Part shown: piece by piece, positions 669-64,000 of the stretch
How positions within the stretch are numbered: the stretch's first letter is position 1
How the letters are laid out: each line of letters starts with the position of its first letter
From: an uncultured bacterium
Lineage (GTDB): Bacteria; Armatimonadota; Abditibacteriia; Abditibacteriales; Abditibacteriaceae
Reading direction: 5' to 3'
Assembly (NCBI GenBank): GCA_963843795.1
Contig: CAWJLW010000006.1
Span: forward strand, 3,174,375 to 3,238,374
DNA: 64,000 nucleotides
Notes under the pieces: generated by a model
Told to the model about the DNA's origin: nothing
Seen by the model: the letters and a program-made list of their open reading frames with translations, nothing else
Databases searched by the model: none
Program-made: the position numbers and the translations under genes

Positions 669-799
669 CTCGTTCCTTCTCGCTGGTCTTGGTCAGCGAT
701 ACTTCTATCTTTAAATTTGCGCCTGTAAGAACGAACTTTGCGTTCGCCCTTACGATGCGCTTTTGCTTTAATTTTACGACGCAGCAAGTACTTGCTGCG

Positions 800-1381
800 T
801 TATTTCTTCTTGTCGCCCTTAGCCGCTTTGCCCAACTTACGCTTGACAACTTCATCGGAGTAGCGCAGGCCCTTGCCTTTATAGGGCTCAACTTTGCGCT
901 GACGGCGCACTTCGGCGGCCACGTCGCCCAGCATCTGACGGTCGTGACACGAAATCACAATCGTCGAGGCCAGAAAGCCGTTTTCAGTTGTCGGTGTCGT
1001 TGGTGTCGCGGTTGCGGTTACGCCTTCGGGCAACGGAACTGAAATGGGATGGGAGTAACCCAGTGCCATATCAAGAGATTTTTCTTTGGCTTCGGCGCGA
1101 TAACCGACGCCACGCAGTTCCAATTTCTTGCTAAAACCTTCGCTGGCACCGACGACGGCGTTGCTCAGCAGAGCGCGCGTCAGACCGTGTAGCGAACGAT
1201 TGTTGGGCGAATCATCCGGGCGAGAGACGACCAGTTGGCCATCTTCCTGCGTGATCGTAATTGCTCCGGGCACGTTGACAGTATTGGTGCCTTTGGGGCC
1301 TTTGACTGTTACTACGCCATCGTTTTGTGTGATCGTGACGCCGGACGGAATAACCACCGGCGCGCGTCCAATTCGTGACAT
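800..1381 (-). CDS. rplF: 50S ribosomal protein L6
   Basis: MSRIGRAPV...GVGYRA...EPYKGKG; start set at MSRIG. Confidence 0.97.
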   Translation of the reverse strand: MSRIGRAPVVIPSGVTITQNDGVVTVKGPKGTNTVNVPGAITITQEDGQLVVSRPDDSPNNRSLHGLTRALLSNAVVGASEGFSKKLELRGVGYRAEAKEKSLDMALGYSHPISVPLPEGVTATATPTTPTTENGFLASTIVISCHDRQMLGDVAAEVRRQRKVEPYKGKGLRYSDEVVKRKLGKAAKGDKKK

Positions 1382-1423
1382 ATTTTTCTCCAAACAGCGG
1401 CTCACGACGAGCCGTTTAAGTCT

Positions 1424-1819
1424 TTAATAAACTCGCGCCAGCAATTCGCCGCCGACTCCGGCACGACGCGCGTCGCGGTCAGACAAGACGCCGCGCGGCG
1501 TTGACAGAATTGCCACGCCCAAGCCGCCAAGAACACGACCAATATCGGCTTTGCCGACATAGATGCGGCGGCCCGGCTTGGAGACGCGCTCCAAAACCTG
1601 AAAGACGCGCTCGCGGCTATCTGTGTAGCGCAGGACGACGCGAATGCGCCCCTGCTTGTTGTCCGGCGTCACTTCGTAATCGCCGATGTAGCCTTCTTGT
1701 TTCAGAATGCGCGCGATCTCAACCTTCAGGTTGGATGACGGCATCGTCACTTCGGGATGGCGCGCCGTATTGGCATTGCGCACCGCGGTCAAAAAATCCG
1801 CAATCGGATCAGTCTGCAT
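1424..1819 (-). CDS. rpsH: 30S ribosomal protein S8
   Basis: [13 protein letters not shown]...SKPGRRIY...GVGGE. Confidence 0.97.
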
Positions 1820-1912
1820 TTATTTTTCCCCATCAGGCGAGCGAACTCGCCAGTTATTTTGCACACGCTATCCGTCATAAAAACGAGCTTTCACGTTTTT
1901 CTGGGACACGTT

Positions 1913-2107
1913 TTACCAAGAGCTTTTCGTCACACCGGGCACCATACCACGATGGCTCATGCCACGAAAGCAGATGCGGCACAATCCGAAACGGCGCATA
2001 TAGCCGCGCGCGCGTCCGCAGAGCTGACAACGGTTTTGCTGACGGCTGCTGAATTTTCCGGTCGCGTTCAAACGCTTGGTTTTGGCGACTTTGCTGGTTT
2101 TGGCCAT
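1913..2107 (-). CDS. rpsN: 30S ribosomal protein S14, short Zn-binding (C+) type
   Basis: [10 protein letters not shown]...GLCRICFR...PGVTKSSW (two CxxC). Confidence 0.96.
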
Positions 2108-2171
2108 AATCGTTTTTTACTATCTGCAAGTACTTGCGAGCACTCGCTCGCCCATAATTAACTGTTGCGAT

Positions 2172-2786
2172 CTACTGTTGCGGCTCATTCGGTTTGCGCA
2201 GTGGCAAGCCCAATTCGCGCAACAGCTCACGCGCTTCTTCATCGGTTTGCGCAGTCGTTACGAACGTGATGTCCATACCGCGCGTTTTCGTCACCTTATC
2301 GATGTCGATTTCCGGGAAGATGATTTGTTCGCGCACGCCCAGCGAATAATTGCCACGTCCGTCGAAACTTTTGTCGGGAATGCCTTGAAAGTCACGAATG
2401 CGCGGCAAGGCCGCATGAATCAAGCGAAACGCGAAATCCCACATTCTCTCGCCGCGTAAAGTTACCATACAGCCAATTGGCATCCCTTCGCGCAACTTGA
2501 AGTTGGCGATGGATTTTTTGGCGCGCCGAATCGCAGGTTTCTGTCCGGTGATAATTGCCAAATCCGCTGCTGCTGCATCGATCAATTTTGCATCGTCGCG
2601 AGCATCGCCCACGCCCATGTTGACAACAATTTTTGTCAAGCGCGGCACGCGCATCGGGTTAGAATACCCGAACTGCTTTTGCAGCGCGGGCACAGCACTT
2701 TGTTCGTAGCGTTGGCGCAGAGCCGGAAGGTTGGAATCGCTGTCGCTGATGACTTCGTTGGGCACGCCGTTATTTTCTTCTGCCAT
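2172..2786 (-). CDS. rplE: 50S ribosomal protein L5
   Basis: KIVVNMGVG...TGQKP...[10 protein letters not shown]...FDGRGNY; acidic N-terminal extension. Confidence 0.97.
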
Positions 2787-2864
2787 TATTTTGTCCTCCC
2801 TCGAGCCGGTGGCGACATCAACAAAACGTTGCTCGCTCCTCGCTCAAGCGGAAATTAAGATTTT

Positions 2865-3221
2865 TTAGTCGATGACTTCGCCGCTTTTAGCGGTGCGAAT
2901 TCGCTTGCCATCGCGCACTTGCGTTTTGATGCGCGTCGGCTTGTTGGTCTTTGGGTCAACCAGCGCCACATTAGATCGATCAATCGGAAAGGCTTTTTCG
3001 ATGGTTTCGATTTCGTTCTGGTTCTGCGTCGAACGCTGGCGATCTTTCATTACATTGACGCCTTCGACGATCACTTTGCCAGTTGCCGGCACGGTGCCGA
3101 TGACTTCGCGCACTTCTTTCGAGCGGCCTTTGCCCGACAGCACGATGACTTTGTCGCCGGTTTTGATTTTCATCGGTTTGCGACGCGCCTGAGTGTTGTT
3201 ATTGCGAAATTTGACTGCCAT
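2865..3221 (-). CDS. rplX: 50S ribosomal protein L24
   Basis: KTGDKVIVLSGKG (KOW)...VIVEGVN...SNVALVDP. Confidence 0.95.
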   Translation of the reverse strand: MAVKFRNNNTQARRKPMKIKTGDKVIVLSGKGRSKEVREVIGTVPATGKVIVEGVNVMKDRQRSTQNQNEIETIEKAFPIDRSNVALVDPKTNKPTRIKTQVRDGKRIRTAKSGEVID

Positions 3222-3222
3222 A

Positions 3223-3591
3223 TTAAAGCACCTCCGGAGCCAAGCTAACAATTTTCATATAACGGCGTTGGCGCAATTCGCGCGCGACCGGGCCGAAAAT
3301 GCGTGTGCCACGCGGGTTGCCGTTTTCGTCGATAATCACCGCAGCGTTATCGTCGAACTTGATGTGACTGCCATCTTCGCGGCTGACGCCGTATGCAGTA
3401 CGCACAATCACGGCGCGCACGACTTGATGCGACTTAACGGTCGCACCGGGAATGGCGTCTTTGACCGTCGCGACGATTTCGTCGCCGATGTTGCCAAAGC
3501 GCGTGCGGGAGCCTTTGAGAACGCGGATGCACAAAATTTCGCGCGCCCCCGAATTGTCGGCCACCCGCAGGCGGGTTTCATTCTGAATCAT
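3223..3591 (-). CDS. rplN: 50S ribosomal protein L14
   Basis: [16 protein letters not shown]...[12 protein letters not shown]...SLAPEVL. Confidence 0.98.
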
Positions 3592-3629
3592 TGGGTTTCC
3601 TCATTGGACACCATCGAAAGATGGCGTCA

Positions 3630-3911
3630 TTATTTCGCGCGTTCAACGATTTGCAGAATGCGCCAGTTTTTCTGTTTCGAGAGCGGTCGCGTTTCCATGA
3701 TGCGCACGCGGTCGCCCTCACGAGCTTCGTTGTTTTCGTCGTGCGCCTTGAATCGCTTGGTGACGCGCTGCACGCGGCCATAAAGCGGGTGACGCTTCAA
3801 ACGCACCACAGCGACGACCGCCGTTTTATCCATCTTATCGCTAACGACTAAACCCTCGCGCACTTTGCGGCGACTTTCGCGTTCAGTCGTGCCTTCTGTT
3901 GTTGTTGCCAT
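3630..3911 (-). CDS. rpsQ: 30S ribosomal protein S17
   Basis: [11 protein letters not shown]...HPLYG...ETRPLSK. Confidence 0.97.
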
Positions 3912-3953
3912 GTCTGTCCTTATTATGGCGAGCCGTTAGAACGGCTCGTATTA

Positions 3954-4202
3954 TTACGCTTGATTCGCGCGTGCCGCCAATTCAGTATGAATACGAGCGA
4001 CCATTTTGCGCACTTGGCGAATGCGCATCGGGTTCGATGCTTGTTGCATCATCGCTTGCGTGCGCAGGTTCAACAGTTCGAGGTCGGCTGTGTGGAGCGC
4101 TTCCCTGAGGTCGGCTTCATCAGCGTTACGCACTGCGTCGCGCTGTTCGTGCATCTTCAGGTTTTTGCCGCCACCACCGAGCAATTTATTCAGATCCGCC
4201 AC
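3954..4202 (-). CDS. rpmC: 50S ribosomal protein L29 (N-terminally extended)
   Basis: ELLNLRTQ...[17 protein letters not shown]; lies between rplP and rpsQ. Confidence 0.9.
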
Positions 4203-4617
4203 TGTTTTCCTCCTCGCGCACGATGAATTTCGTTCTCATCGGCAATTTCATGGCTGCGCGGCGCATCGCTTCCTGCGCCAACTCTTGCGGCACGCCGCCC
4301 ATTTCAAACAGCATACGGCCCGGCTTGACAACCGAAACCCAGAACTCGGGAATACCTTTGCCCGAACCCATGCGGGTTTCTGCGGGTTTCTGCGTCACCG
4401 GTTTGTCCGGGAACACGCGAATCCACACTTTGCCGCCACGCTTGATATAACCCGTCATGGCGCGTCGCGCGGCTTCGATTTGACGGCTGGTGAGCCAGCC
4501 TTCGCCTTGCGCTTGCAAGCCATATTCTCCAAATGCGATATAGTTTCCGCGCGTCGCCAAACCGCTGCGCCGTCCGCGCTGCTGCTTGCGATACCGCGTC
4601 CTTTTGGGCATCAACAT
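4186..4617 (-). CDS. rplP: 50S ribosomal protein L16
   Basis: [15 protein letters not shown]...QIEAARRAM...RMGSGKG. Confidence 0.97.
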
Positions 4618-4678
4618 AATATTTTCCTCATCACTCCGCAATCACACGCTGCAAGTACTTGCAGCGCACAATTCGGCT

Positions 4679-5419
4679 TTAATCATCTTCGTAGTTGCGG
4701 CGACCACGTTGGCGGCCACGGCTCAAGCCAGCGACCGGAGCCGCTTCGTCACCGATGATGTCGCCTTTGTAAATCCAGCACTTGACGCCGATGTTGCCAT
4801 ACGTCGTGGACGCTTCGGCAAAACCGTAATCAATATCCGCGCGCAAGGTGTGCAACGGAACTTTGCCGTCGCGCACTTGTTCGTGACGCGCGATGTCGGC
4901 TCCGGCCAAACGGCCCGAACACAACAAGCGAATGCCTTCGGCGCCTTCTTTCATCATGCGTTGCACCGCTTGGCGAATCGCACGGCGGAACGCAATGCGG
5001 CGCTCGATCTGCTGCGCCACGCTTTCCGCCACCAACTGCGCGTCCAAGTTCGGCTGGCGAATTTCTTCGACCGTGACGCGCACATCGCGCTTGGTCAAAT
5101 CTTTTAATGCCGTCTGCAAACGTTCGATGTCGGCGCCGCGCTGGCCGATGACAACGCCGGGTTTGGCGGTGTGCAACTTGACCAGCACACGATTGGCGGT
5201 GCGCTCGATTTCGATACGTGACAAGGCCGGATCGTTATTGCGTTCGCGCGCTGAGGGGCGGCCCGTGCCTTGTTTGGCTTTGAGATGCTTGCGAATGAAG
5301 CGGCGAATCTGTTCGTCTTCGATCAGAAATTCGCGGTAATTGTCTTTGCTGTACCAGCGGCTCTGCCAGGGTTTGATAATGCCCAGTCGCAAGCCATAGG
5401 GATGAATTTTTTGTCCCAC
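4679..5419 (-). CDS. rpsC: 30S ribosomal protein S3
   Basis: MGQKIHPYGLRLG...GRLAGADIAR...VPLHTLRADIDY. Confidence 0.98.
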   Translation of the reverse strand: MGQKIHPYGLRLGIIKPWQSRWYSKDNYREFLIEDEQIRRFIRKHLKAKQGTGRPSARERNNDPALSRIEIERTANRVLVKLHTAKPGVVIGQRGADIERLQTALKDLTKRDVRVTVEEIRQPNLDAQLVAESVAQQIERRIAFRRAIRQAVQRMMKEGAEGIRLLCSGRLAGADIARHEQVRDGKVPLHTLRADIDYGFAEASTTYGNIGVKCWIYKGDIIGDEAAPVAGLSRGRQRGRRNYEDD

Positions 5420-5446
5420 AAAATACTCCTCTTCGGTCGTTGTCGC

Positions 5447-5779
5447 TTAAATTTTTTCTTCGACTACGACAGTGATGTGGCTCATGCGCTTGAGCATCGT
5501 ATCGGCGCGGCCACGCGAACGCGGCAGGAAACGGCGCAACACTTTTCCCTTGTCGATCATCACCGTTTTCACAAACAAGTTGTCTTCGTCCGCGCCTTCA
5601 TTGTTGGCTGCATTCGCTGCCGCACTTTGAATTACTTTCGACAAAATCGGAGAAGCAACGTGCGTGTCCATCGCCAAAATATTCCGCGCTTCCTCGACCG
5701 GCTTGCCGATGACCAATTTGGCCACGCGGCGCACCTTGAGCGGCGTCATCCGCAAATCTTTTAAAATCGCTCTCGCCAT
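5447..5779 (-). CDS. rplV: 50S ribosomal protein L22
   Basis: MARAILKDLRMTPLKVRRVA...SAAANA...SHITVVV; the ORF-track N-terminal extension is spurious. Confidence 0.96.
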   Translation of the reverse strand: MARAILKDLRMTPLKVRRVAKLVIGKPVEEARNILAMDTHVASPILSKVIQSAAANAANNEGADEDNLFVKTVMIDKGKVLRRFLPRSRGRADTMLKRMSHITVVVEEKI

Positions 5780-5852
5780 AATTTCTCCACACCATGTTCC
5801 GCAAGTACTTGCAGTCTGAAAAACGTGCTGCAAGTACTTGCGGAACAGATAA

Positions 5853-6133: not shown

Positions 6134-6171
6134 AGTTTCTCCGTTTCAAAAGCGCTAACTGAAGCGAACGC

Positions 6172-7014: not shown

Positions 7015-7067
7015 AATGGTTACTTTCGATTCTCGCTTTGGAGCTTTCGCTGCGAGCGATATCGCTT

Positions 7068-8140: not shown

Positions 8141-8833
8141 TCACGAACCTTTCTTTTCTTCTGCCGCATCGTTCCAATCGCCCAGCAACTCTGCCGGAAT
8201 CTTATTGAAATCATCGGTAAATTTTTTCAAGCCGATATCGGTCAACGGGTGTCTCACGAGCAAGTCAAACGTTGCAAATGGCATCGTTACTACATCCGAG
8301 CCAATCAGCGCTGCGTCGCGCACATGAATGGGACCGCGCGCGCTTGCCGTGAGAATTTGCGTCTCATAGCCGTAATTGTCGTAAATGGTTCGAATCTGGC
8401 GAATCAAATCAATGCCATCAATTCCAATATCATCCACACGACCGACAAACGGCGAAATATAGGTCGCGCCAACTTTGGCTGCCGCCAGCGCTTGCGTGGC
8501 TGAAAAGCACAAAGTAACGTTGGTTTTAATGCCTTCTTCGCTCAGCTTTTTGACCAATTTGAGACCGGACGAAATGAGCGGCACTTTCACGTTCACGTTG
8601 GGCGCGATGTTGGCGACCATATGCGCCTGACGCAGCATATCATCGAAGTTGGTGGCCGTAACTTCAACCGAAACCGGGCCGGGCACCATGCCCGCGATTT
8701 CTTTGGCCAACTCCATAAAAGGCCGATTCTGTTTGGCGACGTGAGACGGATTCGTCGTTACGCCATCCAATAAACCGGTATCGAGAATCTGCTCGACTTC
8801 TTTAATATCTGCCGTATCTAAAAAGAACTTCAT
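8141..8833 (-). CDS. tal: Transaldolase (short TalC/MipB, fructose-6-phosphate aldolase-like family)
   Basis: MKFFLDTA...DGVTTNPS...SVEV...VKVP (Schiff-base Lys)...TNVTLCFS...YISPFVGR. Glu in SVEV and Phe in SPF favour transaldolase over FSA. Confidence 0.93.
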   Translation of the reverse strand: MKFFLDTADIKEVEQILDTGLLDGVTTNPSHVAKQNRPFMELAKEIAGMVPGPVSVEVTATNFDDMLRQAHMVANIAPNVNVKVPLISSGLKLVKKLSEEGIKTNVTLCFSATQALAAAKVGATYISPFVGRVDDIGIDGIDLIRQIRTIYDNYGYETQILTASARGPIHVRDAALIGSDVVTMPFATFDLLVRHPLTDIGLKKFTDDFNKIPAELLGDWNDAAEEKKGS

Positions 8834-8881: not shown

Positions 8882-9582
8882 CTATTTCTGGCGACGCGCA
8901 TCTTTTTCGATGCGCACCAGGCCGCCCGGCGCACCAGGAATCGCGCCTTTGACAACCAGCAGGTTGCGCTCGGCGTCGATTTCCACAACTTCCAAACCGA
9001 GCTGAGTTACGTTTTCGTTACCAAAACGGCCCGGACGACGCGCACCCGGAAACGTGCGCGCTGGATCGGTCGCGCCGTTCGACGCTGGCTTGCGGTGAAT
9101 TTTTTGATCCGTGACTGGCTTTTTGGCCAACGAACCCGTGACGCTTCATAACGCCCGCAAAACCACGACCTTTGCTTTTGCCTTGAATCTTGATCGCGTC
9201 GCCAGTTTTGAAAAACCGTGTCCACGCCGACCGAACTTCCGGCTGCTGGCTCGTCGCCTTCGGCATCCAAACGGAACTCGGCCAGATGCCGTGTTGCCGC
9301 CGCGCCGCCGTTCTTGGCAAAATGACCGGCATCGGCTTTATTGGCTTCGCCGCGACCGCGATGACCGCTATCGCCGCGCTTGACTTTGCGTCTCTTGCGC
9401 GGAGTCTTGCGTTCCAAATAGCCCAACTGCACCGCTTCGTAGCCGTCTTTTTCTGTCGTTTTGCGCTGCACGACCACACAGGGGCCGCATTCGATAACTG
9501 TTACGGGAACGGCAACGCCATCCTCACCGAAGATCTGCGTCATGCCGACTTTGCGGCCCAACAATCCATTTACTGTTGCCAT
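8882..9582 (-). CDS. rplC: 50S ribosomal protein L3 (two apparent +1 homopolymer errors, near 9211-9215 and 9100-9105)
   Basis: Three frames join: [10 protein letters not shown]...PVTVI / [26 protein letters not shown] / IHRKPAS...[10 protein letters not shown]. Confidence 0.95.
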
Positions 9583-9662
9583 TTTCTTTACACTCAGCCA
9601 GAGGTCAATCCATTACAGACGTGACGTTCGCTGTCCTTTTATGAGCTTGCGCTCGATTAATA

Positions 9663-10073: not shown

Positions 10074-10088
10074 CCAATTGTTGCGATC

Positions 10089-11280
10089 TTACTTTGTGAT
10101 TTTCGTAACGACGCCCGCGCCAACGGTGCGGCCACCTTCGCGAATCGCGAAGCGCAGACCTTCATCCATAGCAACCGGAGCCAACAAGTTCGACGTTCAT
10201 TTTGATGTTGTCGCCCGGCATGACCATTTCGGCGCCACCGCCGAGTTCCGTAACCGAACCCGTAACGTCGGTGGTGCGGAAGTAGAACTGCGGACGGTAG
10301 TTCTTGAAGAACGGCGTGTGACGGCCACCTTCTTCTTTCGACAAGATATAAACCTCGGCCTCGAAATGGGTGTGCGGTGTGATCGAACCCGGCTTGGCGA
10401 TAACCTGGCCGCGCTCGATGTCTTCGCGCTTCAAGCCGCGCAACAAAGCGCCGCAGTTGTAACCGGCGACGGCAGTGTCCAGCGACTTGTTGAACATTTC
10501 CAGACCGGTGACAGCGGTTTTCTGCGTATCGCGGATACCGACGATTTCGACTTCTTCGCCGACTTTGATCTGGCCGCGCTCGATACGACCCGTGGCAACC
10601 GTGCCGCGACCCGAAATCGTGAACACGTCTTCGACAGCCATCAAGAACGGCTTGTCGATTTCGCGTTCGGGTTCGGGAACATACGAATCCAGAGCGTCCA
10701 TCAATTCGGCAATCGGCGCTTCATCGGCTTCATCAGTGGCGTTGAGGGCTTTGAGACCCGAACCACGAATGATCGGCATGTCGTCGCCGGGGAAGTCGTA
10801 TTTGGAAAGCAATTCGCGCAATTCCAATTCGACCAATTCCAGCAATTCTGCGTCGTCAACCATGTCCACTTTGTTCAAGAAGACGACGATGTACGGCACG
10901 CCGACCTGTCTGGCCAGCAGAATGTGCTCGCGCGTCTGCGGCATCGGGCCGTCGGCGGCGGAAACAACCAGAATCGCGCCGTCCATCTGCGCCGCGCCGG
11001 TGATCATGTTTTTCACATAGTCGGCGTGGCCGGGACAGTCAACGTGCGCGTAGTGACGGTTTTCGGTTTCGTATTCAACGTGAGCGGTAGCGATAGTAAT
11101 ACCGCGCTCGCGCTCTTCGGGCGCCTTGTCGATCTGGTCGAAAGCGACGTTTTTGGCGAACCCTTTCTTTGCCTGCACTTTGGTGATCGCGGCGGTCAGC
11201 GTGGTTTTTCCATGGTCAACGTGACCGATGGTGCCGACGTTCACGTGCGGCTTGGTGCTTTCGTACTTCTGCTTGGCCAT
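10089..11280 (-). CDS. tuf: Elongation factor Tu (apparent +1 error near 10181)
   Basis: [17 protein letters not shown]; the shifted frame gives [30 protein letters not shown]. Confidence 0.98.
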
Positions 11281-16834: not shown

Positions 16835-16872
16835 CAAAAACCACCTTGCAAGTACTTGCAAGGTGGTTTTTG
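16835..16872. terminator. 38-bp perfect palindrome centred on the repeat; terminator-like
   Basis: CAAAAACCACCTTGCAAGT|ACTTGCAAGGTGGTTTTTG downstream of the anti-sigma gene. Confidence 0.7.
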
Positions 16873-21948: not shown

Positions 21949-22246
21949 TTTTCACCTTTTTTATCTTCACTCCGATGATAATCTTCTCCTAATCCTTCGC
22001 TTTTCGTTCCTCGACTATCGCGCCTTGCGATAGCTTTGTGTCGTGTTTCACTGTGTCTCCCTGCAACGCGCTTTGTTTTCTCGCGTTTGATGAGCACGTT
22101 CTCGTTGCTTTCCCTATTTATTTTTGGCAAGACCAGCGTTGCAAGTACTCGCAGCGTTTAAAATCGCCCTGCAAGTACTTGCAGCGCGATTCGCGGCGTT
22201 GGTTTTGCGCATTTGTCATTTTTGTCACATTTTTTGAAGGAATTTT

Positions 22247-23665: not shown

Positions 23666-23736
23666 TCGATTCCCAAAACAAGTGAAGCTGCAAGTACTTG
23701 CAGCTTCACTTGTGGGGGTTATCACCGAGTCAACTT

Positions 23737-31096: not shown

Positions 31097-31580
31097 TTAA
31101 ACTCCTGTAAGCTTTCGTGCTCGTTGCTGGTCGTTCGGTGACGTGTCTTTCATGCGAAAACGGCTTTAGTAGAAACGACTTCGAATTTGACTTCGAGGCA
31201 GTTTGATTTAACTCGATTTTCAGCAGACAACTCATCAAGACGACAAAAAACGGACAACTTTTCAGAGATTTAATTCGCTTTCAAGTGTCCGCAACTTCGC
31301 TTCCACCGCCACAAGCCATCTGTAGCTTTCGGCTAAAATTCGACTCCGAATAGTGGGCGCAAAACTCTTCTAACTTTACCGAGCAAAGGCTTGTCTGTCA
31401 AACCAAACAATCGGTTTTTAGGCAATTTTACACTTGTATAAAGCGGCAAAACTCAGACCTATTCCCAAAACGCGCCTTCGCACCCGCGTCCTTTTAGTTC
31501 TGCTTATTGCTGCAAAAGCCGATAAAAATGGGCGCGACGAAGCTCGAACTCAAGCCGTAATCAAGGCCAATCACAAATTC

Positions 31581-32411
31581 ATGAGGCGAACCTTTCAAGA
31601 ATCTATACCGAGTTCGTCTCCGTTCAAAGCCGTTTTGCGAGCGTTACAAACCGGCGCGCAAAAACTGGAAGCGGGCATTTTGCCGCCCCGTTGTGCAGGT
31701 TGCAACTGGTTCGAGGAGCAGTTGTTTTGCCAACGCTGCCGCACAAACTTGCATCAAGTGAAACCACCCTTTTGTGCGTGTTGTGGCGAACCATTCGACC
31801 CGCAGGCGCAAGTTCTTGCCACTTCGTTGTGCGCCGATTGCCGTCCCAACCGTTATCAACACGCGCCACCGCTGGATACAGCGCGTTCTTTATGGGTGAT
31901 GGAGGGCACAGCACGACGCGTTGTTTATCGTTTCAAATACCAGAATCGCCATCATCTGTCGGAACTTTTGGCGCACGAAATGGCGCTTTATTTGAGCGCT
32001 CACGCAGAGGAAACGCCGCAATTGATCGTGCCGGTTCCGCTGCATTCGTGGCGACAATGGAGACGCGGTTACAATCAAAGCGCTTTGTTAGCGCGGGCTT
32101 TGGCGACCACACTGCAAACGCCTTATGCCGAGCTTCTGCGGCGCACTCGCCACACGCCCAGCCAGACGCGATTGAATATCGGTCAGCGACGCGAAAATGT
32201 GCGTGATGCGTTTGCTGTCGATGCCAAAGTTTGTGGCAAGTACTTGCCACAAACGATTTCCCACGTTTTGCTCATCGACGACGTTTATACAACCGGCGCC
32301 ACGCTGCGCGAATGTGCGCGTCAACTCAAAAGTGCCGGTTTTGCTTCAGTGCACGCCCTCACCTTAACGCGACAGCCCACAGCAACCAATCCAAAAATTC
32401 CTCCGGCATAA
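31581..32411 (+). CDS. ComF-family protein (double zinc ribbon + PRTase)
   Basis: Four CxxC; IVPVPLH, RGYNQS, LIDDVYTTGATL. Confidence 0.92.
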   Translation: MRRTFQESIPSSSPFKAVLRALQTGAQKLEAGILPPRCAGCNWFEEQLFCQRCRTNLHQVKPPFCACCGEPFDPQAQVLATSLCADCRPNRYQHAPPLDTARSLWVMEGTARRVVYRFKYQNRHHLSELLAHEMALYLSAHAEETPQLIVPVPLHSWRQWRRGYNQSALLARALATTLQTPYAELLRRTRHTPSQTRLNIGQRRENVRDAFAVDAKVCGKYLPQTISHVLLIDDVYTTGATLRECARQLKSAGFASVHALTLTRQPTATNPKIPPA

Positions 32412-33643: not shown

Positions 33644-33773
33644 GCGAACAGCCCTGCAAGTACTTGCAGGGCTGTTCGTCTCTATCTAATTGCAGGCTAA
33701 AAGAGTCTGAATAGGGAATACTGCAAAGCGATAATTTTTGAATGGGTGATTTGGGAAAATGTAAAAAGACGAG

Positions 33774-34677: not shown

Positions 34678-34713
34678 AAAAACCTCCCTGCAAGTACTTG
34701 CAGGGAGGTTTTT
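34678..34713. terminator. 36-bp perfect palindrome centred on the repeat; bidirectional terminator-like
   Basis: AAAAACCTCCCTGCAAGT|ACTTGCAGGGAGGTTTTT between convergent genes. Confidence 0.75.
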
Positions 34714-40756: not shown

Positions 40757-40796
40757 GCAAAACGCCCGCTGCAAGTACTTGCAGCGGGCGTTTTGC
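40757..40796. terminator. 40-bp perfect palindrome centred on the repeat; bidirectional terminator-like
   Basis: GCAAAACGCCCGCTGCAAGT|ACTTGCAGCGGGCGTTTTGC between convergent fba and the PepSY gene. Confidence 0.75.
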
Positions 40797-42070: not shown

Positions 42071-42814
42071 TCAATAACTCGCGCGTGGATCGAAACTGCC
42101 CTTGAGTGGCGGGTCGAAGCTGTAGTCGATTTTGTAAGCCTGCGACCATTTTGTCCATTTGGCATGACCATCCAGATAGCCCGCATTGAAGCCTTCGAAA
42201 TGTGCCGAAACATTCAAATCTCCCGGTTTATCCTGCGTGCCGCCTTTCCAATCGCCCGCGTAAGCATAACCCGGCACCGGATAAGCGAAAGCGTGAAAAT
42301 AGCTGCCCGTCCAATTGTTCGGGCTTTCCGCCATATAAATCACCGAAGCGGGCGATTGCACGTTCGCAATATGGCTGCTTTTCAAACCGCTGGCGTTCCA
42401 CGGGTTGGTGCTGGGCGTCGCGCTGGGCGCAGAGGCCGGAAAGAATCCGTTCAAAACATAAGTCGTAACGCGATAATTTCCGCTTTCGTTGGGCGCATCC
42501 CACAGCGCGCTGGAATCGCTGGGACAACGCAGAATTTGTGCACTTTTCAAATACGGTTGCATCGCGCCCAATGGCCACGCGGTTTCGCCCTTGTTGGGCG
42601 GAAACTGATCGTCGTTGTCCTGAAAATACTGCACATAACCCAAACCGATCTGCTTCTGATTCGACAAACACGAAATGCGCCGCGCATTTTCGCGTGCCCG
42701 CGCAAACACGGGAAACAAAATCGCCGCCAAAATCGAAATGATCGCAATCACGACCAAAAGTTCGATCAAGGTAAAGCCGCGCTGCGAGCGCTTGAGAAAG
42801 CTGCCAGGGAACAT
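42071..42814 (-). CDS. DUF1559 prepilin-type N-terminal cleavage/methylation protein with H-X9-DG motif
   Basis: [52 protein letters not shown]. Confidence 0.93.
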
Positions 42815-43140: not shown

Positions 43141-43923
43141 ATGGAATTCACCCGATTTTCTTCTCTGTTTGCCATTCCTCATCTGCAGCACGCCATCACG
43201 CAACGGCACAGCGGCGTTTCTGCGGCTCCATTCGCATCACTCAATCTCGGCCTGCACGTTGGCGATAATGAAAACGCGGTGCGCAAAAATCGTGAAATCG
43301 TCGCCCGCGAGTTGGATTACGCCGCGCACGATTGCGTTTTCGCGCAACAAACACACGGCACCAATGCGCACATCGTCACGCCCGCAGATCGCGGTCGCGG
43401 CGCGCAGAATTTCGCGAACGCTCTACCCGATTGCGATGCGATAATCGTCGGCGTTGCAGATGTGCCCGCAATGATTCTGGTGGCCGATTGCGCGCCACTT
43501 TTGTTCGTTGATGCGCGTCTGCAAGTACTTGCAACCGTTCACGCCGGTTGGCGTGGCGCGAGCGCGGGTATCGCGCGAAAAACCATCGCGAAAATGTGCG
43601 GGGAATTGGGGTGCAATGCGGCCGATATTCGCGTGGGAATCGGCCCGTGTTTGTGTGTCGATTGTTTAGAAATCGGCGAAGAAGTGGCCGCGCAAATACT
43701 TGCAGCAGGTAATGCAAGTACTTGCATCATACGTGAAAATTACGAAAAGCCACATTTGGATTTGCGGCGTTTGCTAATTGATGATTTGGCGCGCGTGCAA
43801 GTACTTGCGGGGCAGATTGAAGCGTTGGATATTTGTCCGCGTTGTGCCAATGACGATTATTTTTCGTATCGCGGCGATGGCGGCACGACGGGACGTTTTG
43901 GGTTGGTCGCATGGTGGAATTGA
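43141..43923 (+). CDS. pgeF: Peptidoglycan editing factor / purine nucleoside phosphorylase (YfiH/PgeF)
   Basis: SLNLG, QTHG, ADCAP, HAGWRG, IGP, FSYR. Confidence 0.92.
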   Translation: MEFTRFSSLFAIPHLQHAITQRHSGVSAAPFASLNLGLHVGDNENAVRKNREIVARELDYAAHDCVFAQQTHGTNAHIVTPADRGRGAQNFANALPDCDAIIVGVADVPAMILVADCAPLLFVDARLQVLATVHAGWRGASAGIARKTIAKMCGELGCNAADIRVGIGPCLCVDCLEIGEEVAAQILAAGNASTCIIRENYEKPHLDLRRLLIDDLARVQVLAGQIEALDICPRCANDDYFSYRGDGGTTGRFGLVAWWN

Positions 43924-58164: not shown

Positions 58165-58932
58165 ATGAAAATCGAACAGGTCGGAGCACAATTGTATACG
58201 ATTCGCGACTTCATCAAAACCCCGCCCGAGATCGCGACTTCGCTGAAAAAGATTCGCGACATCGGTTACCACGCAGTGCAGGTTTCGGGCATGGGGCCAA
58301 TTGACGAAAGCGAACTCTTGAAAATGTGCAACGATCTTGGCCTGACGATTTGCGCCACGCACGAAAGCACCACGCGCATTTTGGACGAACCTTTGCAAAT
58401 TGTCGAGCGTTTGAAAAAACTCGATTGCCGCTACACCGCCGTGCCTTCGGCGGGCACGCGTTTCGAAACCATCGAGGAAGTCGAAGCCTTTGCCGCGCGC
58501 ATGAACCAGGCCGGAAAGGTTTTGGCCGAAAACGATTGCACCCTGATGTATCATAATCACGCTTCGGAATTCGCACGCATTGAGGGCCAGATGATTCTGG
58601 AACTGTTTTACGGCCAGACCGATGCGCGCTATCTACAGGGTGAAATTGACACTTATTGGGTGCAATACGGCGGCGCCGATCCGGTCGCATGGTGCGAACG
58701 TTTGAAAAATCGTTTGCCGGTGATTCATCTCAAGGATTATATGGCCAGTCAGGATAACAAAGCCACGTTTTGCGAAATTGGATACGGCAATTTAGATATG
58801 GCAGCCATTATTGCCGCAGCGGAAAAGTCGGGCTGCCAATGGCTGGTCGTCGAACAGGATACAACGCCCGGCGATCCGTTTGAAAGCCTGAAAATGAGCT
58901 TCGATTGGCTGCACCAACACTTGAGCGCTTGA
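58165..58932 (+). CDS. Sugar-phosphate isomerase/epimerase (xylose isomerase-like TIM barrel)
   Basis: QLYTIR, YHNHASEF, EIDTYW, HLKD, VEQD. Confidence 0.9.
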   Translation: MKIEQVGAQLYTIRDFIKTPPEIATSLKKIRDIGYHAVQVSGMGPIDESELLKMCNDLGLTICATHESTTRILDEPLQIVERLKKLDCRYTAVPSAGTRFETIEEVEAFAARMNQAGKVLAENDCTLMYHNHASEFARIEGQMILELFYGQTDARYLQGEIDTYWVQYGGADPVAWCERLKNRLPVIHLKDYMASQDNKATFCEIGYGNLDMAAIIAAAEKSGCQWLVVEQDTTPGDPFESLKMSFDWLHQHLSA

Positions 58933-59045
58933 AAAGTTGTGGCAAGCCCTTGTCGCAAGTACTTGCAGGGCCGAATTGTTGCAGATAACTCGGTGCAAGT
59001 CATGGCGCAAATAATCCAGCAGGTGCAGATGAGGAGTGCAGTTTT

Positions 59046-60626
59046 ATGAGTGGGATGTCGGGAACGCAACGAGTAATTTTGGGCGCAGGCGCGATGTTGG
59101 CAATTTTGCTGATGTCGATGTGGATGTCGTTTTCGCGCTTTGCCGAACTCGAACGCGAAAACAGCATCAACGCGCAAACTTACCGCACGCTTTTATTAAC
59201 GCATGAAGCGACGCGCGCCTTGATCGATATGGAAACTGGCAATCGCGGCTTTTTGCTGACGGGTCAAGACGCTTTTCGCGAGCCGTTTTATAGCGGTCGC
59301 AACACGTTCAAAGCGCGTTATGCCGATTTGCTCCGGCTCACGGCCGCTTCGCCAGCCCAACAAAAACGCCTTAAGACAATCAAGGCCAAGCTCACTCAAT
59401 GGTTCGCTTTAGCCAATCCCGCCATCCAAGCGCGTCGCAAATCGGCTCCGGGCGCGCCAGTGATTTTGATCGGCAACGAAGGCAAGCGTAAACAACTGGT
59501 CGACGAGATGCGCGTTCTGTTGCAGGAAGTGCGCAGCCAGGAAGAGGGCGGTTTGCAGCAGGCCAACGCGCGGCGTTCAAACCTGCAATTTCTTTCGCAG
59601 GGCACACTGGCTTTTAATGCGCTTTTGGCGACTTTATTCGTGGTTGGCCTGGCATGGAGCTTGGTGCGCGGCGCTTCGCGCGTCGAAGAGTCGAACGCCG
59701 AACTGCGAAGGCAGGTCGAAACCAGCCGCCGTTTGGAACGCGAACGAACGATTTTAGCCAATCACAACGAGCAAATTCTCAACTCGACCAGCGAAGGCAT
59801 TGTCGGCCTCAACATCAAAGGACGCATCACTTACGCCAACCCCTCGGCGGCCAAAATGCTGGGCTGGGAGCCGGAAGAATTGATCGGCAAATCGTGGTTC
59901 GATGCTGCTCAGCACGCGCACGCCGATGGCTCTCCTACCGACAACAAAGACAGCCCGATTATGGCTTCGCTGCGCGATATGAAAGCTCGTCGCGTCAGCG
60001 ATGATATTTTCTGGAATCGTCGCGGTCGCAACTTCCCCGTCGAATACGCGGTGACGCCGCTTTTTGAAATGAAAGGCGCGAGTGCTGAAGGCGAAAATGC
60101 CGATGACGAACAAATGGACGCAGAAGAAGCACAGCAAGTCGGCGCGACATTAACGTTCCGCAACATTACCGAACGCAAGCAATCGGAAATCGCGCTGATA
60201 CGCTTGGCTTCGGTTGTCGAATCGTCCAAAGATGCCATCCTGAGCCATCTGCCCGACGGCACTATCGTTTCGTGCAATGCGGCTGCAGTGCGTTTGTATG
60301 GATACCCGGCACGCAACCTGGAAAATCAACCGTTGAATACTTTGTTTCCACCCGGAAGTTCGCGCGAAGTCGAATTGGTCGTCGAGCACATTCAAGGCGG
60401 CGAGCGTATCGATCCGTATCAGACCAAGATGCTGACCAAAGATGGCCGCCGCATCAATGTCGCCCTGACCTTTTATCCGGTTCTTGATGCGCGCGGCAAC
60501 TTGATGGGCGCTTCATCTAACGCGCGTCCGCTGCGCAAAAGCGGCGGCCCTGAACTGCCCGATTTCGAAGAAGCCATCGCCAACAGCGCGGATAATGTGG
60601 AAACTGCCGAAACCGTTTCTGCCTGA
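59046..60626 (+). CDS. CHASE3-PAS-PAS membrane sensor with no recognisable output domain
   Basis: TM; DMETGNRGFLLTG (CHASE3); TM; two PAS domains (ITYANPSAAKMLGW; FRNITERK; VVESSKDAI). Confidence 0.85.
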   Translation: MSGMSGTQRVILGAGAMLAILLMSMWMSFSRFAELERENSINAQTYRTLLLTHEATRALIDMETGNRGFLLTGQDAFREPFYSGRNTFKARYADLLRLTAASPAQQKRLKTIKAKLTQWFALANPAIQARRKSAPGAPVILIGNEGKRKQLVDEMRVLLQEVRSQEEGGLQQANARRSNLQFLSQGTLAFNALLATLFVVGLAWSLVRGASRVEESNAELRRQVETSRRLERERTILANHNEQILNSTSEGIVGLNIKGRITYANPSAAKMLGWEPEELIGKSWFDAAQHAHADGSPTDNKDSPIMASLRDMKARRVSDDIFWNRRGRNFPVEYAVTPLFEMKGASAEGENADDEQMDAEEAQQVGATLTFRNITERKQSEIALIRLASVVESSKDAILSHLPDGTIVSCNAAAVRLYGYPARNLENQPLNTLFPPGSSREVELVVEHIQGGERIDPYQTKMLTKDGRRINVALTFYPVLDARGNLMGASSNARPLRKSGGPELPDFEEAIANSADNVETAETVSA

Positions 60627-60848
60627 AACCGAAATCTCAGAAGCAAAACGCACTCTGCAAGTACTTGCGCATGTACTTGCAGAGTGCGTTTTCTTTTTTC
60701 TGGCATCATGAAGAATAACCTCATGCAATTTCCGCATTTGAAATTTTCAAAAATCGCTAGTCTTCATGAGTGGCTGATGGCGTTACACGAACGAGAAAAC
60801 GTCGAAAAACTGCTGTCGCGTTTAACTTGAGGAAAGGCAGTGACGCAT

Positions 60849-60888
60849 AAAAAGACCGCGCAGAACGAGGTCGGCTCGTCTGCGCGGC
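60849..60888 (-). terminator. Intrinsic terminator (minus strand)
   Basis: CCGCGCAGACGAG-loop-CTCGTTCTGCGCGG followed by TCTTTTT. Confidence 0.7.
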
Positions 60889-61031
60889 TATACACCAGTC
60901 GGGCAACTGGTAAAGATTATTATCGAACGAATGAGCTACTCTGGCTGTTAAATACTTTACATTCCAGTTGATAATTTTCTCAGCAAACACGGTTGAAACC
61001 GCTTGAAAGCTTTTGAAAGCCTTTGTCGTTT

Positions 61032-63845
61032 TCACGGCATCCACCACGATTTCATTTCACACGCGCCGAAATCTATCGTCACATTTCCACCTCTGGTCAG
61101 CGTTTTTTTGCTCACCGCATCTTTCAATTCGCCATTGCGCGGCAACTTGATCTGAGCCTTGGTCTTTGGTTTCAAACCGGTGTTAATAGCGGCATACCAA
61201 GTACCTTGGTTGGGTGTCGTTATTTCGCGGACGACGATTTCTTTGTCGTTTGAAGCATTGGGCACGATGCGGCTCGGCAACGCGGGCAGCGCCAGAAAAG
61301 CGCTGTTGAAAGCGCGCGCATATTCAGGAAAGCCACGCCCGAAATTGTTGCCCGACAAGTAACCGATTTCAGTGGGATCGCCGTTCGCCATCGCACGCAC
61401 TTCAGCCAGCATTGAATACGGCCCGGCACTTTCCATATCGGCCACGAAATAGCCGAGCTTTTCTTTCTCGGCGCGGTCGAACATCATGTTCTCATTAAGC
61501 GAATAAAAACGGATCATCGCCAAGCGATCTGGGCCGCGAAATTCATCAAAGGTTTTGGGTGATGCGACCGTATAGGCGCGATTAAACGCGTGAGTCATTA
61601 AAACACCCGCATCGTTTTTGTAACTTTGCGGATCGGCCCACGGGTTACTGTATTGCCATTCCCATCCGCCCCACGTATTAACCGGAGATGTTAAAGCCTG
61701 ACCATACAAATTTTGCTGTGCGACTTGTTCGGGCGTTAAAATCGTGGTTGGCTTGTCGTCTTTGCTCAGCTTTCCGTTCAAAATCGGTTGCCAGAATGGG
61801 ACGTCGTCGGTTACAAAACGCTTGTCCCAACCGGAAAACCCAACGCCCGGTTCGCTGGTAACCGGCGTGAACATGACCAGCGGATTCGCGATGCCATTGG
61901 CCATCAAATAATCGCGCATCGCGTCCAAAAACGCGCGCCGCTTTTGAAACCACCAATTTTCGTAACGCGCCAAAAGCGCTTTATCGGCGATGAGATTTTG
62001 ACGCGTGACGGGCTTTTGGTCGTTGGCTTCAGCGACGAAACGCGCCAACGTAGCATCGGCAAAGCTCATCGGCATTTGGCCACGCGAACGCAGCCAGATT
62101 CCAACAAACGGCGCTTTCTTCGCCTGACGCACGACGGTTAAATCGAGCATCTTCTTGAAATCTTCAAAGGTATCGGGATCGGTCAAATCGGCGTTGGACG
62201 CTTCGATCCATTCGATATGGGTATAAGCATCGTCGCGCGTTAAGGGTTTGGCGCGCCGCTCGTTGCCCAAACCTTTGTAGCCTTTGCTGCCCGAATATTC
62301 GTAATACGGCAGCACACCAAAACCTTCTTGTCCCATCAATTCGACGATTTGGCCCCACAAATCTTTGGTATCGCCATCGAAGAACGCCCAATCGTTGCCA
62401 CCCAACGCTGAAGTATCCCAATGTTGCACAGCACCGAATTCGAGCAAATCTTTGGCGTAAGTATTCATGCCCAGAAAGTGCATCTGCCGTGCTTTGTAGC
62501 GGTACCAATCGAGCCGATTATCCACACCGCGCTCTGTGGCTTTGCTACTTTGGATCACCCCATCGGACATTTCTTCGCGCCAGAACAAATGGCGCTGCGG
62601 CAAACCTTGCGGCAAATTCACCGGCGCGTTCAAATCTTGCGGTTCCAACACTTCAAACAAACGAATGCGCGCGACCGCTGCGCCCTGTGAAGCGGGAATG
62701 TTATCGGCAGAGAACTGCGCGATAGTGACAGGAAAGCCATCTTCGGGTGCCAGCGCACGCTCGCCCGCGCCGCGAATGAAAGCGAGCTGTGGAAAACGGT
62801 CGTGGAGCGAAAACAGCATCTTCCAGTTTTCGTACTTTCCGCTGAGAGGCAAATTGAGCGACTCATTGAAATTATCGACATATTTGGGATGCAGCGCATC
62901 GCCCAGAGCGCGACCAGTCGCGAAGCCGCGCGAGGTTTCATTCCCACCATTCATCACGATCACGCTGCGCGAAGCGTCTTCGGGATATTCGATGTTCAGC
63001 ACATATTGTGCGCCCGGCTTAAGCAGTTTGTATTGTCCCAAACGCACCGTAAAATACGCGCTTTCTCCTTCAGTTTTGTTCAATACGCGCGCTTTGCGAC
63101 CCAGAATGGTTTCAACGCGGCTCGCGTTTTCCGGGCTTTGTGCGAATTTATGTCCGGGATTGTCCGCGCCCAGATCAACTTCATCGACAAGGGATAATTT
63201 GCCAAACGGTGCCATTTCGATAACGGGTCGCTGCGCCACTTCATCCTGCGCCCGTTTCAATTGTGCGGCGCGCTCGACTACTTCGCGCGCCGCAAGTACT
63301 TGCTGCGCCTGATAAGCGTTCCAACTCGCATCCGAAAACGCATCGAGCGCTAATTCGCCCGCATTGGCTCCGGCAGTTTTCAATTCGACGCGCAGATAGC
63401 GCGTTTTGGTGTTCAAGGGAATTTGCGCCCAACTGTTGTAGGCTTTGCCATCATAAGTGGCGATTTGTTTCCAATCGCCCGCTTTGCCCGCGTAAAAAAC
63501 CGTGTCGCCTTCGGCGTTGGTGTCATAGAGCCAGGCCGTTGCCAACGGCATTTCGCGCCCCAGATCAATGATGACCGCCGCCGGAAATTCTTTCTGAGTT
63601 TGCCAATCGGCTTTCCAACCATTTTGCGGCTGAGCTTTGGGCGATGTGCCAGATGGCTCGACGATTAAATTTTGCTCATCCGCCAGCCCCGAAAAATCGA
63701 CTTTCGCGTTTTCGCTTTGCAGCATCGCGGGCGTCAACGGAATGCGCACAGTTTGCGGTGCGGCAGTTTGCGCATGGCTGAGATTTGTTGACAGGATACT
63801 GGCCGCGCTCAGAAATAAAGTGCACAGAAACGATGATGGGTTCAT
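61032..63845 (-). CDS. Large secreted hypothetical protein (discoidin/CBM-like N-domain, possible glycoside hydrolase)
   Basis: Signal peptide; IIDLG...TRYLRVEL resembles an F5/8-type domain; the aromatic-rich remainder is unassigned. Confidence 0.6.
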   Translation of the reverse strand: MNPSSFLCTLFLSAASILSTNLSHAQTAAPQTVRIPLTPAMLQSENAKVDFSGLADEQNLIVEPSGTSPKAQPQNGWKADWQTQKEFPAAVIIDLGREMPLATAWLYDTNAEGDTVFYAGKAGDWKQIATYDGKAYNSWAQIPLNTKTRYLRVELKTAGANAGELALDAFSDASWNAYQAQQVLAAREVVERAAQLKRAQDEVAQRPVIEMAPFGKLSLVDEVDLGADNPGHKFAQSPENASRVETILGRKARVLNKTEGESAYFTVRLGQYKLLKPGAQYVLNIEYPEDASRSVIVMNGGNETSRGFATGRALGDALHPKYVDNFNESLNLPLSGKYENWKMLFSLHDRFPQLAFIRGAGERALAPEDGFPVTIAQFSADNIPASQGAAVARIRLFEVLEPQDLNAPVNLPQGLPQRHLFWREEMSDGVIQSSKATERGVDNRLDWYRYKARQMHFLGMNTYAKDLLEFGAVQHWDTSALGGNDWAFFDGDTKDLWGQIVELMGQEGFGVLPYYEYSGSKGYKGLGNERRAKPLTRDDAYTHIEWIEASNADLTDPDTFEDFKKMLDLTVVRQAKKAPFVGIWLRSRGQMPMSFADATLARFVAEANDQKPVTRQNLIADKALLARYENWWFQKRRAFLDAMRDYLMANGIANPLVMFTPVTSEPGVGFSGWDKRFVTDDVPFWQPILNGKLSKDDKPTTILTPEQVAQQNLYGQALTSPVNTWGGWEWQYSNPWADPQSYKNDAGVLMTHAFNRAYTVASPKTFDEFRGPDRLAMIRFYSLNENMMFDRAEKEKLGYFVADMESAGPYSMLAEVRAMANGDPTEIGYLSGNNFGRGFPEYARAFNSAFLALPALPSRIVPNASNDKEIVVREITTPNQGTWYAAINTGLKPKTKAQIKLPRNGELKDAVSKKTLTRGGNVTIDFGACEMKSWWMP

Positions 63846-64000
63846 AGAAATTTTTCGATTTTCAGCAGGTTTTGACGCTGCAAGTACTTGCAGAAGAATT
63901 TAGGAAGTGGCAATGAAGACAATTGTATAGAAATGATGTTGCGTGTCGCGGCAAGTACTTGGCCACAACCAAAAACCGGAACATCTGCGTTCAATCAGAG

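Follow-up and report, generated by a model that had tools for sequence, protein, structure and literature searches.

The palindrome in the window

The DNA considered here, referred to as the window, is a stretch of 64,000 nucleotides from an uncultured bacterium of the Abditibacteriaceae (phylum Armatimonadota; GenBank assembly GCA_963843795.1, contig CAWJLW010000006.1, positions 3,174,375 to 3,238,374). It contains a 12-bp palindrome, GCAAGTACTTGC, in 44 perfect and 15 one-mismatch copies dispersed over positions 784 to 63962. Matches number 59 at up to one mismatch and 60 at up to two, whereas 100 shuffled versions of the window gave a mean of 0.26 and a maximum of 3 at up to one mismatch. 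An earlier note on this DNA had reported the same 44 perfect copies, which a recount reproduces exactly, and about 18 one-change copies; such copies exist, but they number 15 by substitution. It had also begun the span at 779, whereas the first copy occupies 784-795; the last one, 63951-63962, is a one-mismatch copy.

According to the hexamer-based gene caller of our own that was used for both window and genome, 31 of the perfect copies are intergenic and 13 lie within called genes. They start at positions 784, 2126, 4651, 5801, 5830, 8077, 11585, 11922, 13259, 15266, 16848, 18581, 19771, 20505, 22171, 23690, 25287, 27212, 27769, 28959, 32236, 33656, 34690, 36890, 37034, 40771, 43521, 43714, 43797, 43971, 46209, 47790, 49004, 49601, 49952, 51526, 52243, 54112, 57083, 58039, 58955, 60657, 63292, and 63880.

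Several copies are located at the center of long hairpins. The hairpin at 34678-34713 (no strand assigned) has A/T tails, is flanked by convergent genes, and appears terminator-like, which is regarded as a secondary use (RNA fold -27.2 kcal/mol, z -6.4). Another one between convergent genes, at 40757-40796 (no strand assigned; -37.1 kcal/mol, z -8.4), has an arm sequence unlike that of the hairpin at 34678. Further long-hairpin copies occur between co-directional genes (16835-16872, minus strand, fold z -6.8), 3′ of hflX (23678-23713, plus strand), and 3′ of a lipid-kinase gene (33645-33678, plus strand). Four copies, at 43521, 43692 (one-off), 43714, and 43797, fall between 43521 and 43808 on the plus strand of a pgeF-like coding sequence (43141-43923); that at 43521, the only one folded there, forms no stable hairpin (z 0.3). 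A public short-read contig is identical to window positions 43317-43820 and covers all four copies, although the match is not independent because the contig may come from the source sample. Two copies lie 29 bp apart in a ribosomal-protein operon (5801-5841), providing an example of helically phased neighbors, and another pair is separated by 30 bp in a divergent intergenic region (22141-22182). At 60657-60680 the 12-mer is tandemly duplicated at a hairpin center (no strand is assigned to these three features).

Abundance and distribution in the genome

The source genome (G000; other G numbers denote relatives) comprises 4.30 Mb in 11 contigs, and homologues of two proteins of the family carry the names Abditibacterium utsteinense and Abditibacteriaceae, in line with its placement. 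Counted genome-wide against a second-order Markov model, as the earlier note had suggested, the palindrome occurs 2,563 times (2,567 counting overlaps) where 0.32 are expected, and copies are present on all 11 contigs, so that the enrichment is not limited to one of them. The ratio of perfect to one-off copies is 2,567:506, and conservation is 97% or higher at each of the 12 positions. By position 1-6, the one-off variants number 110, 40, 62, 154, 60, and 80; the commonest deviation is thus at position 4/9 rather than at the outer position.

When mapped along the chromosome, the density proved flat: the main 3.6-Mb contig carries 47-83 copies per 100 kb with no trend versus GC skew, density being lower in its first 100 kb and on several small contigs. 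Spacing is more even than random (variance/mean 0.56-0.78). The two longest copy-free gaps, 26 kb each, contain transposases and type I restriction-modification (R-M) genes; such islands lack copies, as is the case for uptake sequences in recently acquired DNA. The last 23 kb of the main contig (C6:3600000-3623414), with 67% GC, zero copies, and genes for VirB-like proteins, is foreign or mis-joined DNA.

Approximately 1,800 copies (70%) are intergenic and 763 of the 2,567 (30%) are located in coding sequence, the gene caller having assigned 3,579 genes and 86% of the genome as coding; these classes are approximate because the assembly contains frameshifts. About half of the intergenic regions of at least 20 bp hold a copy; among convergent regions the count is 285 of 459, and among divergent ones 238 of 483. 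Frameshifts split the genes for EF-Tu (window 10089-11280), rplC (8882-9600), and pilC (C6:397725-398960), and are probably indel errors of the assembly. Within the S10 operon, a transaldolase/fructose-6-phosphate aldolase gene (8141-8833) is situated between rplC and rplD, and the DNA match continues through it in G003, G004, and G017 as well. At 66 sites in G000, a one-base insertion is found at the palindrome center (GTAAC/GTTAC); these may be genuine variants, or the reads may be in error at a modified base.

An assembly artefact is ruled out by the codon-level integration of the copies, by the corresponding words in six other assemblies (both described below), and by the identical short-read contig. 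Oriented signals (Chi, KOPS) and sites limited to the origin or terminus (parS, matS) are ruled out by the flat density and the symmetry of the word. Viral contigs gave six single matches to the motif, none being motif-rich, and a scan of a genome collection yielded one unrelated locus among the matches listed; no RNA holder was among the entries listed either.

Dialects in related genomes

The comparison set comprised 31 genomes of the class. The exact 12-mer occurs 0-3 times in each of the 30 relatives. Seven genomes are motif-rich, namely G000 and six relatives that have their own GTAC-containing palindromes at 0.5-1 per kb. G001 uses (Y)CAAAGTACTTTG(R), with 2,725 cores. G009, G015, and G038 use WTCGAGTACTCGAW and G012 uses YGAGTACTCR, BAGTACTV being counted 2,753-4,381 times in each of these genomes. 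The dialect of G006 is a palindrome of 26 bp that carries GTAC at each end (2,981 half-sites), and a metagenome contig (L103) carries CAAGTACTTG 24 times in 20.5 kb. AGTAC is common to every dialect, and all are palindromic, the 26-bp unit of G006 included. Spacing is even in the samples examined (coefficient of variation 0.55-0.84). The earlier note had pointed to ScaI/RsaI sites (AGTACT/GTAC) and to TGCA. GTAC is indeed the relevant inner site, but TGCA is rejected because the versions found in relatives lack it.

No iterated word was found in 20-100 kb samples of G002, G003, G004, G005, G007, G010, G014, G017, G020, and G021, and the remaining motif-free genomes were classed by whole-genome counts of AGTACT words only. 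A survey of 301 genomes of the phylum used only the 8-mer AAGTACTT, which misses the dialects of genus g6, and further dialects outside the class are therefore possible. Three GAGTACTC sites on a 2-kb metagenome contig (L102:421-1956) suggest a further dialect, cGGAGTACTCCg. In G006 (L200-L202, L292-L296), the terminal ACT is usually retained where one half of the palindrome has decayed. At 8 of 9 positions, the half-site of G006, AAGTACGGT, agrees with the uptake core of Haemophilus, AAGTGCGGT, probably by coincidence.

Origin of the copies and their flanks

The history of coding copies was followed in G001, a member of the same genus, of which 239 kb of 3.1 Mb was aligned to G000 proteins. 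In the resulting 95.9 kb of orthologous codon alignment, G001 has 64 copies of the core AAGTACTT and G000 has 21, with 5 positions shared. Most of these cores are located in gap-free codons with conservative amino-acid changes, while some G001 sites fall in variable linkers. Copies are created by substitution and have a rapid turnover. Protein sequences are adapted to the motif: the tetrapeptide QVLA is found 571 times (its next permutation 127 times) and is encoded by motif codons in 508 cases, and ASTC occurs 134 times, 116 of them with motif codons. Coding copies also fill gaps, their density being 1-1.5 per 10 kb near an intergenic copy and 4-5 per 10 kb (3-4 times denser) beyond 2 kb.

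The earlier statement that copies share no longer body was too strong. A longer and weaker 34-bp consensus, AAAAnCGCGCT-core-AGCGCGnTTTT, surrounds them, and 499 of the 2,567 copies have an extended, co-varying stem (at least 8 bp of extra stem) with A/T tails. Synonymous third positions next to coding copies keep the flank consensus (A+1, z 24; G+2, C+3, and G+4, z 8-9; G+6, z 6; T+9 and T+10, z 8), and A/T recurs at +18 to +21. These A/T flanks at helical-turn spacing are present in G000 and weak or absent in the samples of G009, G012, and G001. The copies are dispersed overall, as the earlier note had it, but a few are arrayed, with 52 neighboring pairs at 10, 12, or 13 bp, mostly duplicated hairpin centers.

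The long-stem copies lie mostly 10-40 bp past stop codons and have terminator-like folds, 184 of them between convergent genes. It is known that REP/RAYT elements are high-copy, species-specific, palindromic, and often intergenic hairpins, and the palindrome might accordingly be a REP- or MITE-like element spread by a HUH transposase, or a plain family of intrinsic terminators. The 70% intergenic share, the long hairpins with their A/T tails, the tandem duplications at hairpin centers, and the REP-like size of the 26-bp palindrome of G006 agree with such an origin. The 763 coding copies and their origin by substitution speak against it, and the hairpin arms differ between copies and co-vary left and right, so that the long hairpins are not one copied element. 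The bare 12-mer folds with -1.3 kcal/mol only, and G-U and A-C variants on the sense strand are about equally frequent (24 versus 24 in the largest class). This absence of wobble asymmetry rules out an RNA-level constraint on the core. The earlier note had also named a HUH/RAYT nuclease or recombinase as a candidate, which finds no support: both RAYT-like genes of G000 are broken, each lying between unrelated hairpin repeats of its own, and Y1 transposases are found in motif-rich and motif-free genomes alike. For the core, this reading is largely refuted, and we consider it very improbable. The two RAYT-like genes are located at C6:752058 (L002) and C6:631841 (L353), the latter adjoining a tRNA gene and being undetected by the Pfam search.

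Neighboring copies are also helically phased. Among 235 neighbor distances of 17-130 bp, a 10.5-bp period is evident that none of 1,000 permutations equaled in strength, although the spacers are unrelated; the amplitude is 0.64-0.70, compared with 0.02-0.08 for 10 abundant control words, two rare control words (29 and 131 pairs) being too noisy for judgement. Because of the gap filling, the synonymous flank consensus, and this phasing, the signal is considered to reside in double-stranded DNA, with terminator use secondary.

Such features could also be explained if an intracellular dimeric protein organizing or protecting the chromosome (nucleoid-associated, SeqA-like, or SlmA-like) bound the palindrome, with selection acting site by site; the association with nuclease loss described below would then mean merely that GTAC had been freed for use. 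The phasing despite unrelated spacers is the best support for this explanation. It would further account for the two-fold symmetry of all dialects, for the periodic A/T flanks, as expected of bent or wrapped DNA, and for the presence of a copy in about half of the intergenic regions, divergent ones included. On the other hand, the conservation at all 12 positions is sharper than that of most regulator sites, copies are neither depleted nor enriched along the replichores, SeqA had no match in any of the five genomes searched, and the turnover of coding sites is fast (of 80, 5 are shared). It also leaves unexplained why each nuclease-free lineage has a different dialect. On balance, a chromosome-bound protein seems unlikely to us.

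An orphan methyltransferase and a nuclease-like gene

The sole PF01555 methyltransferase of G000 is encoded outside the window (C6:2517365-2518135). It has a DPPY motif and is of the beta class and of orphan adenine type. Orthologues were detected in 21 of the 31 genomes, including all seven motif-rich ones. The enzyme probably methylates the GTAC inside the palindrome, a specificity proposed because the presence of a nuclease-like gene, its neighbor in some relatives, tracks GTAC depletion.

This gene, an open reading frame (ORF) of about 240 residues without a Pfam match, adjoins the methyltransferase gene in the motif-free G003, G017, and G034; the two are directly convergent in G017 and G034 and two ORFs apart in G003. 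In most other genomes they are far apart or on separate contigs, and in G008 the nuclease-like gene lies after a comEA gene. The structure model of the protein (pLDDT 90.8) has its best matches in NhoI (Z 7.6, rmsd 6.6, 130 aligned residues), PvuII (Z 6.4), and MutH (Z 6.2), and almost all of the top 25 matches are nucleases with the same fold as these. E41, D62, and K79 are invariant. A hydrophobicity heuristic predicts a hydrophobic leader in 104 of 116 homologues, the G034 copy having none. We infer from sequence and model that the protein may be an exported restriction-like enzyme that would cut unmethylated GTAC. Assignment to ScaI or another named restriction family could not be made, as matches to the ScaI and PvuII clusters in the Atlas were under TM 0.5. 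The family, exemplified by G003:C1:48613-49347 (L314:3613-4347, P0001) and present in 12 other genomes of the set, includes 995 homologues. It is common in Verrucomicrobia and has relatives of about 30% identity in marine cyanophages; no plasmid homologue was found in the search.

An intact nuclease-like gene occurs in 13 of the 31 genomes, all of them motif-free, and in none of the seven motif-rich ones by protein and profile search. Within the clade that holds all motif-rich genomes (based on a tree of six short ribosomal proteins), all six motif-free members have it. In the profiling of motif-rich against motif-free relatives proposed in the earlier note, the nuclease (0/7 versus 6/6) separates the groups within this clade and the methyltransferase occurs in all motif-rich genomes (7/7); competence, pilus, and Y1 genes do not separate the groups. 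In the motif-rich G015, two collinear fragments of the nuclease gene survive in separate frames and occupy the corresponding place next to the methyltransferase gene, and the nuclease was therefore lost in that lineage. In the outgroup g2, the gene is present in 7 of 13 genomes. Both this distribution and the G015 remnant favor repeated loss. The motif may have arisen once and then been lost, or may have arisen anew after each nuclease loss.

GTAC is the only one of the 16 four-base palindromes whose depletion tracks the nuclease, with a median observed/expected (o/e) ratio of 0.05 versus 0.64 (p 0.0003), as measured in samples of 6-290 kb per genome, and of 0.05 versus 0.41 (p 0.015) without the motif-rich genomes. 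The number of AGTACT words per whole genome also follows the presence of the nuclease (p 0.019). Since depletion of GTAC alone tracks the nuclease, GTAC is the likely target of the nuclease/methyltransferase pair. At five of six phage loci with distant nuclease homologues, GTAC is among the four rarest four-base palindromes, which is a weak hint because phages avoid many of them.

A probable methylation site at the center of a palindrome also recalls models in which a methylation-directed repair ratchet, or the need for strand-discrimination marks in mismatch repair, builds up the word with no role in uptake, as in Elhai's HIP model (PMC4390886). A palindrome made by substitution that saturates near one copy per kb is what such models predict, and MutL is present, its gene being four genes from that of the methyltransferase in G009. 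However, the published model requires methylated cytosine, and neither G000 nor G001 gave a match to a C5 methyltransferase. No MutH match was found in the motif-rich G000, G012, and G009 either. The commonest deviation is at position 4/9 (154) and not at the outer position (110), and T-tracts 15 bp from the center, phased neighbors, and the 26-bp form of G006 would not readily be produced. A repair origin is thus quite improbable in our estimation.

Competence genes and the search for a reader protein

A type IV pilus cluster is encoded, as are ComEC, ComEA, and DprA. ComEC is encoded in 30 of the 31 genomes and a minor pilin in 27, whereas ComEA (5/5), DprA (4/5), MutL (5/5), and Y1 transposases (5/5) were searched for in five genomes; none of them separates motif-rich from motif-free genomes. 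The pilus clusters of motif-rich genomes contain no extra pilin, and no candidate for the protein that would recognize the palindrome emerged from 160 basic exported proteins selected heuristically. ComP (PF16732) had no match in five genomes, nor in any of 14 controls.

In motif-free G017 and G014, a minor pilin is broken, and G014 also has a split comEC (G017:C40:12501-13472; G014:C8:556976-557988 and 739589-740301 for these loci). No dprA was detected in G017, which is 84% complete; either competence decay or assembly error may be responsible. The window itself encodes a ComF-family protein (31434-32411, plus strand; TIGR00201, E 1e-31, below the curated cut-off), noted here for context only, and, at 42071-42814, one of about 40 prepilin-type genes of G000, most of which are of the DUF1559 kind.

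A proposed origin of the palindrome

The explanation put forward here, to which we give roughly an even chance, is that the 12-mer is a methylated-GTAC self tag for natural transformation, similar to HIP1 and uptake sequences, that arose where a screening of DNA by export and cutting had been lost. It would be a species-specific tag in double-stranded DNA, built around a GTAC that the orphan adenine methyltransferase probably methylates. Ancestrally, this methyltransferase would have been paired with an exported restriction-like nuclease that cut unmethylated GTAC in incoming DNA and drove GTAC from the genome. Where the nuclease was lost and the methyltransferase kept, a protein of uptake or of later recombination may have come to favor fragments with GTAC palindromes. 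Repeated transformation with DNA of the same species would then fix tag-creating point mutations until about one tag per 1-1.6 kb was present, with the spacing coming to match fragment length, and hairpin-forming copies would later have been taken up as terminators. The broad reading of the earlier note, a HIP1- or uptake-like, non-mobile signal maintained by a trans-acting system, holds. It had listed four mechanisms without choosing among them; the evidence points to a GTAC methyltransferase combined with loss of an exported GTAC nuclease.

A number of observations weigh against this proposal. With regard to the enzymes, the methyltransferase occurs in motif-free genomes too, its nearest solved relative is M.RsrI, which lends GTAC no support, the G015 enzyme carries EPPY instead of DPPY, and the structural Z-scores of the nuclease-like protein are middling, with 7.6 as the maximum. 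GTAC positions are no better conserved than positions 2-3 of the 12-mer. The pattern of gene presence amounts to about three contrasts rather than thirteen, because kin are not independent, and completeness is just 63% for the motif-rich G001 and 77% for G038, likewise motif-rich. G004 and G007, in which no nuclease was detected, encode the methyltransferase and lack the motif, and nuclease loss is therefore not sufficient for the motif; G007 and G016 have very low GTAC though no nuclease was detected in them, and G003, G017, and G034 have the nuclease yet only moderate GTAC depletion (0.28-0.45). No reader protein was found in a search that was far from exhaustive and did not compare whole proteomes of the relatives, and competence genes and pilus cluster content are alike in motif-rich and motif-free genomes. 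Moreover, uptake sequences of Neisseria and the Pasteurellaceae are non-palindromic. The 10.5-bp phasing suits a chromosome-bound protein at least as well, and it could not be demonstrated in the other dialects (22 pairs, p 0.18).

A wider version of the proposal is possible, and we hold it only tentatively. Using a single methyl mark, Abditibacteriaceae may alternate between two modes of screening incoming DNA, either a negative one, with an exported nuclease and a purge of GTAC, or a positive one, with nuclease loss and a species-specific GTAC palindrome raised to thousands of copies as a tag for uptake or recombination. The switch would have occurred about three times independently, with a new dialect each time, and HIP1-like and uptake sequences would thus be born from an R-M system. 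The reason for the existence of HIP1 and the first origin of uptake sequences have long been debated, and the known cases (cyanobacteria, Neisseriaceae, and Pasteurellaceae) offer few close relatives with and without the signal. The Abditibacteriaceae provide sister lineages of both kinds, five or more dialects, and a gene distributed as a mirror image of the signal, which makes the origin testable by comparative genomics and enzyme assays. The family of signal-peptide-bearing, restriction-like nucleases is of interest in itself.

Relation to known systems

By titles and abstract openings, with few subscription journals and no supplements covered, no publication was found that describes GCAAGTACTTGC, iterated palindromes of Abditibacteriaceae, over-represented AGTACT, or exported restriction enzymes in transformation.

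Like the R-M systems of type II, the gene pair of the relatives consists of neighboring genes (in G003, G017, and G034, and as a remnant in G015) and is accompanied by avoidance of GTAC alone among the 16 palindromes. The closest such system is HpyAXII of Helicobacter pylori, a GTAC restriction system that limits incoming DNA and accompanies genome-wide GTAC avoidance, with a methyltransferase more conserved than its nuclease (PMC2588503); the GTAC target is inferred in the present case. HpyAXII combines a gamma-class methyltransferase with a PabI-type enzyme, whereas the pair found here joins a methyltransferase of the beta class to a signal-peptide-bearing, PD-(D/E)xK-like protein, and the available part of that report describes no iterated palindrome. 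The palindrome differs from REP/RAYT elements in that substitution has produced coding copies, that it lacks a fixed body, and that no RAYT gene flanked by the motif accompanies it.

The RAATTY signal of Campylobacter jejuni is likewise palindromic, methylated by an orphan methyltransferase (here a probable step), and used to recognize self DNA in transformation (here proposed), as described in bioRxiv 10.1101/2024.09.10.611283. It is a degenerate 6-mer found every ~60 bp, in contrast to a strict word of 8-26 bp about every kb in the present genomes.

The Neisseria DNA uptake sequences (DUS; PMC2397512) and the Pasteurellaceae uptake signal sequences (USS; PMC1626085) resemble the palindrome in their density of about one per kb, their high ratio of perfect to one-off copies, and their origin by substitution rather than insertion, as well as in their absence from recently acquired DNA, their use in terminators, and their clade dialects. 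Spacing that matches conversion tracts is reported for DUS, and AT-rich flanks at helical spacing, as seen in G000, for USS. The palindrome differs from both in that its core is palindromic in all dialects, it is linked to a methyltransferase, and ComP has no match (nor in the controls).

With cyanobacterial HIP1 and the alternate HIPs (PMC4390886, PMC5861425, PMC13756078, and bioRxiv 10.1101/2024.09.10.611283), it shares a short palindromic word that occurs roughly once per kb in both genes and spacers, extensions specific to lineages, and an orphan methyltransferase whose site probably falls within the palindrome. HIP1 has been reported to raise transformation in a way that depends on methylation (bioRxiv 10.1101/2024.09.10.611283; PMC13756078). 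Unlike HIP1, however, the word is not GCGATCGC or a derivative, its host is not a cyanobacterium, and its dialects of 8-26 bp differ between close relatives. G000 and G001 yielded no C5 methyltransferase, intergenic bias is strong and terminator use evident in G000, one-off variants are not concentrated at the first and last positions, and the distribution is the mirror image of that of a nuclease-like protein with a signal peptide. The palindrome would work like HIP1 or an uptake sequence, yet it belongs to neither of them on grounds of sequence or symmetry.

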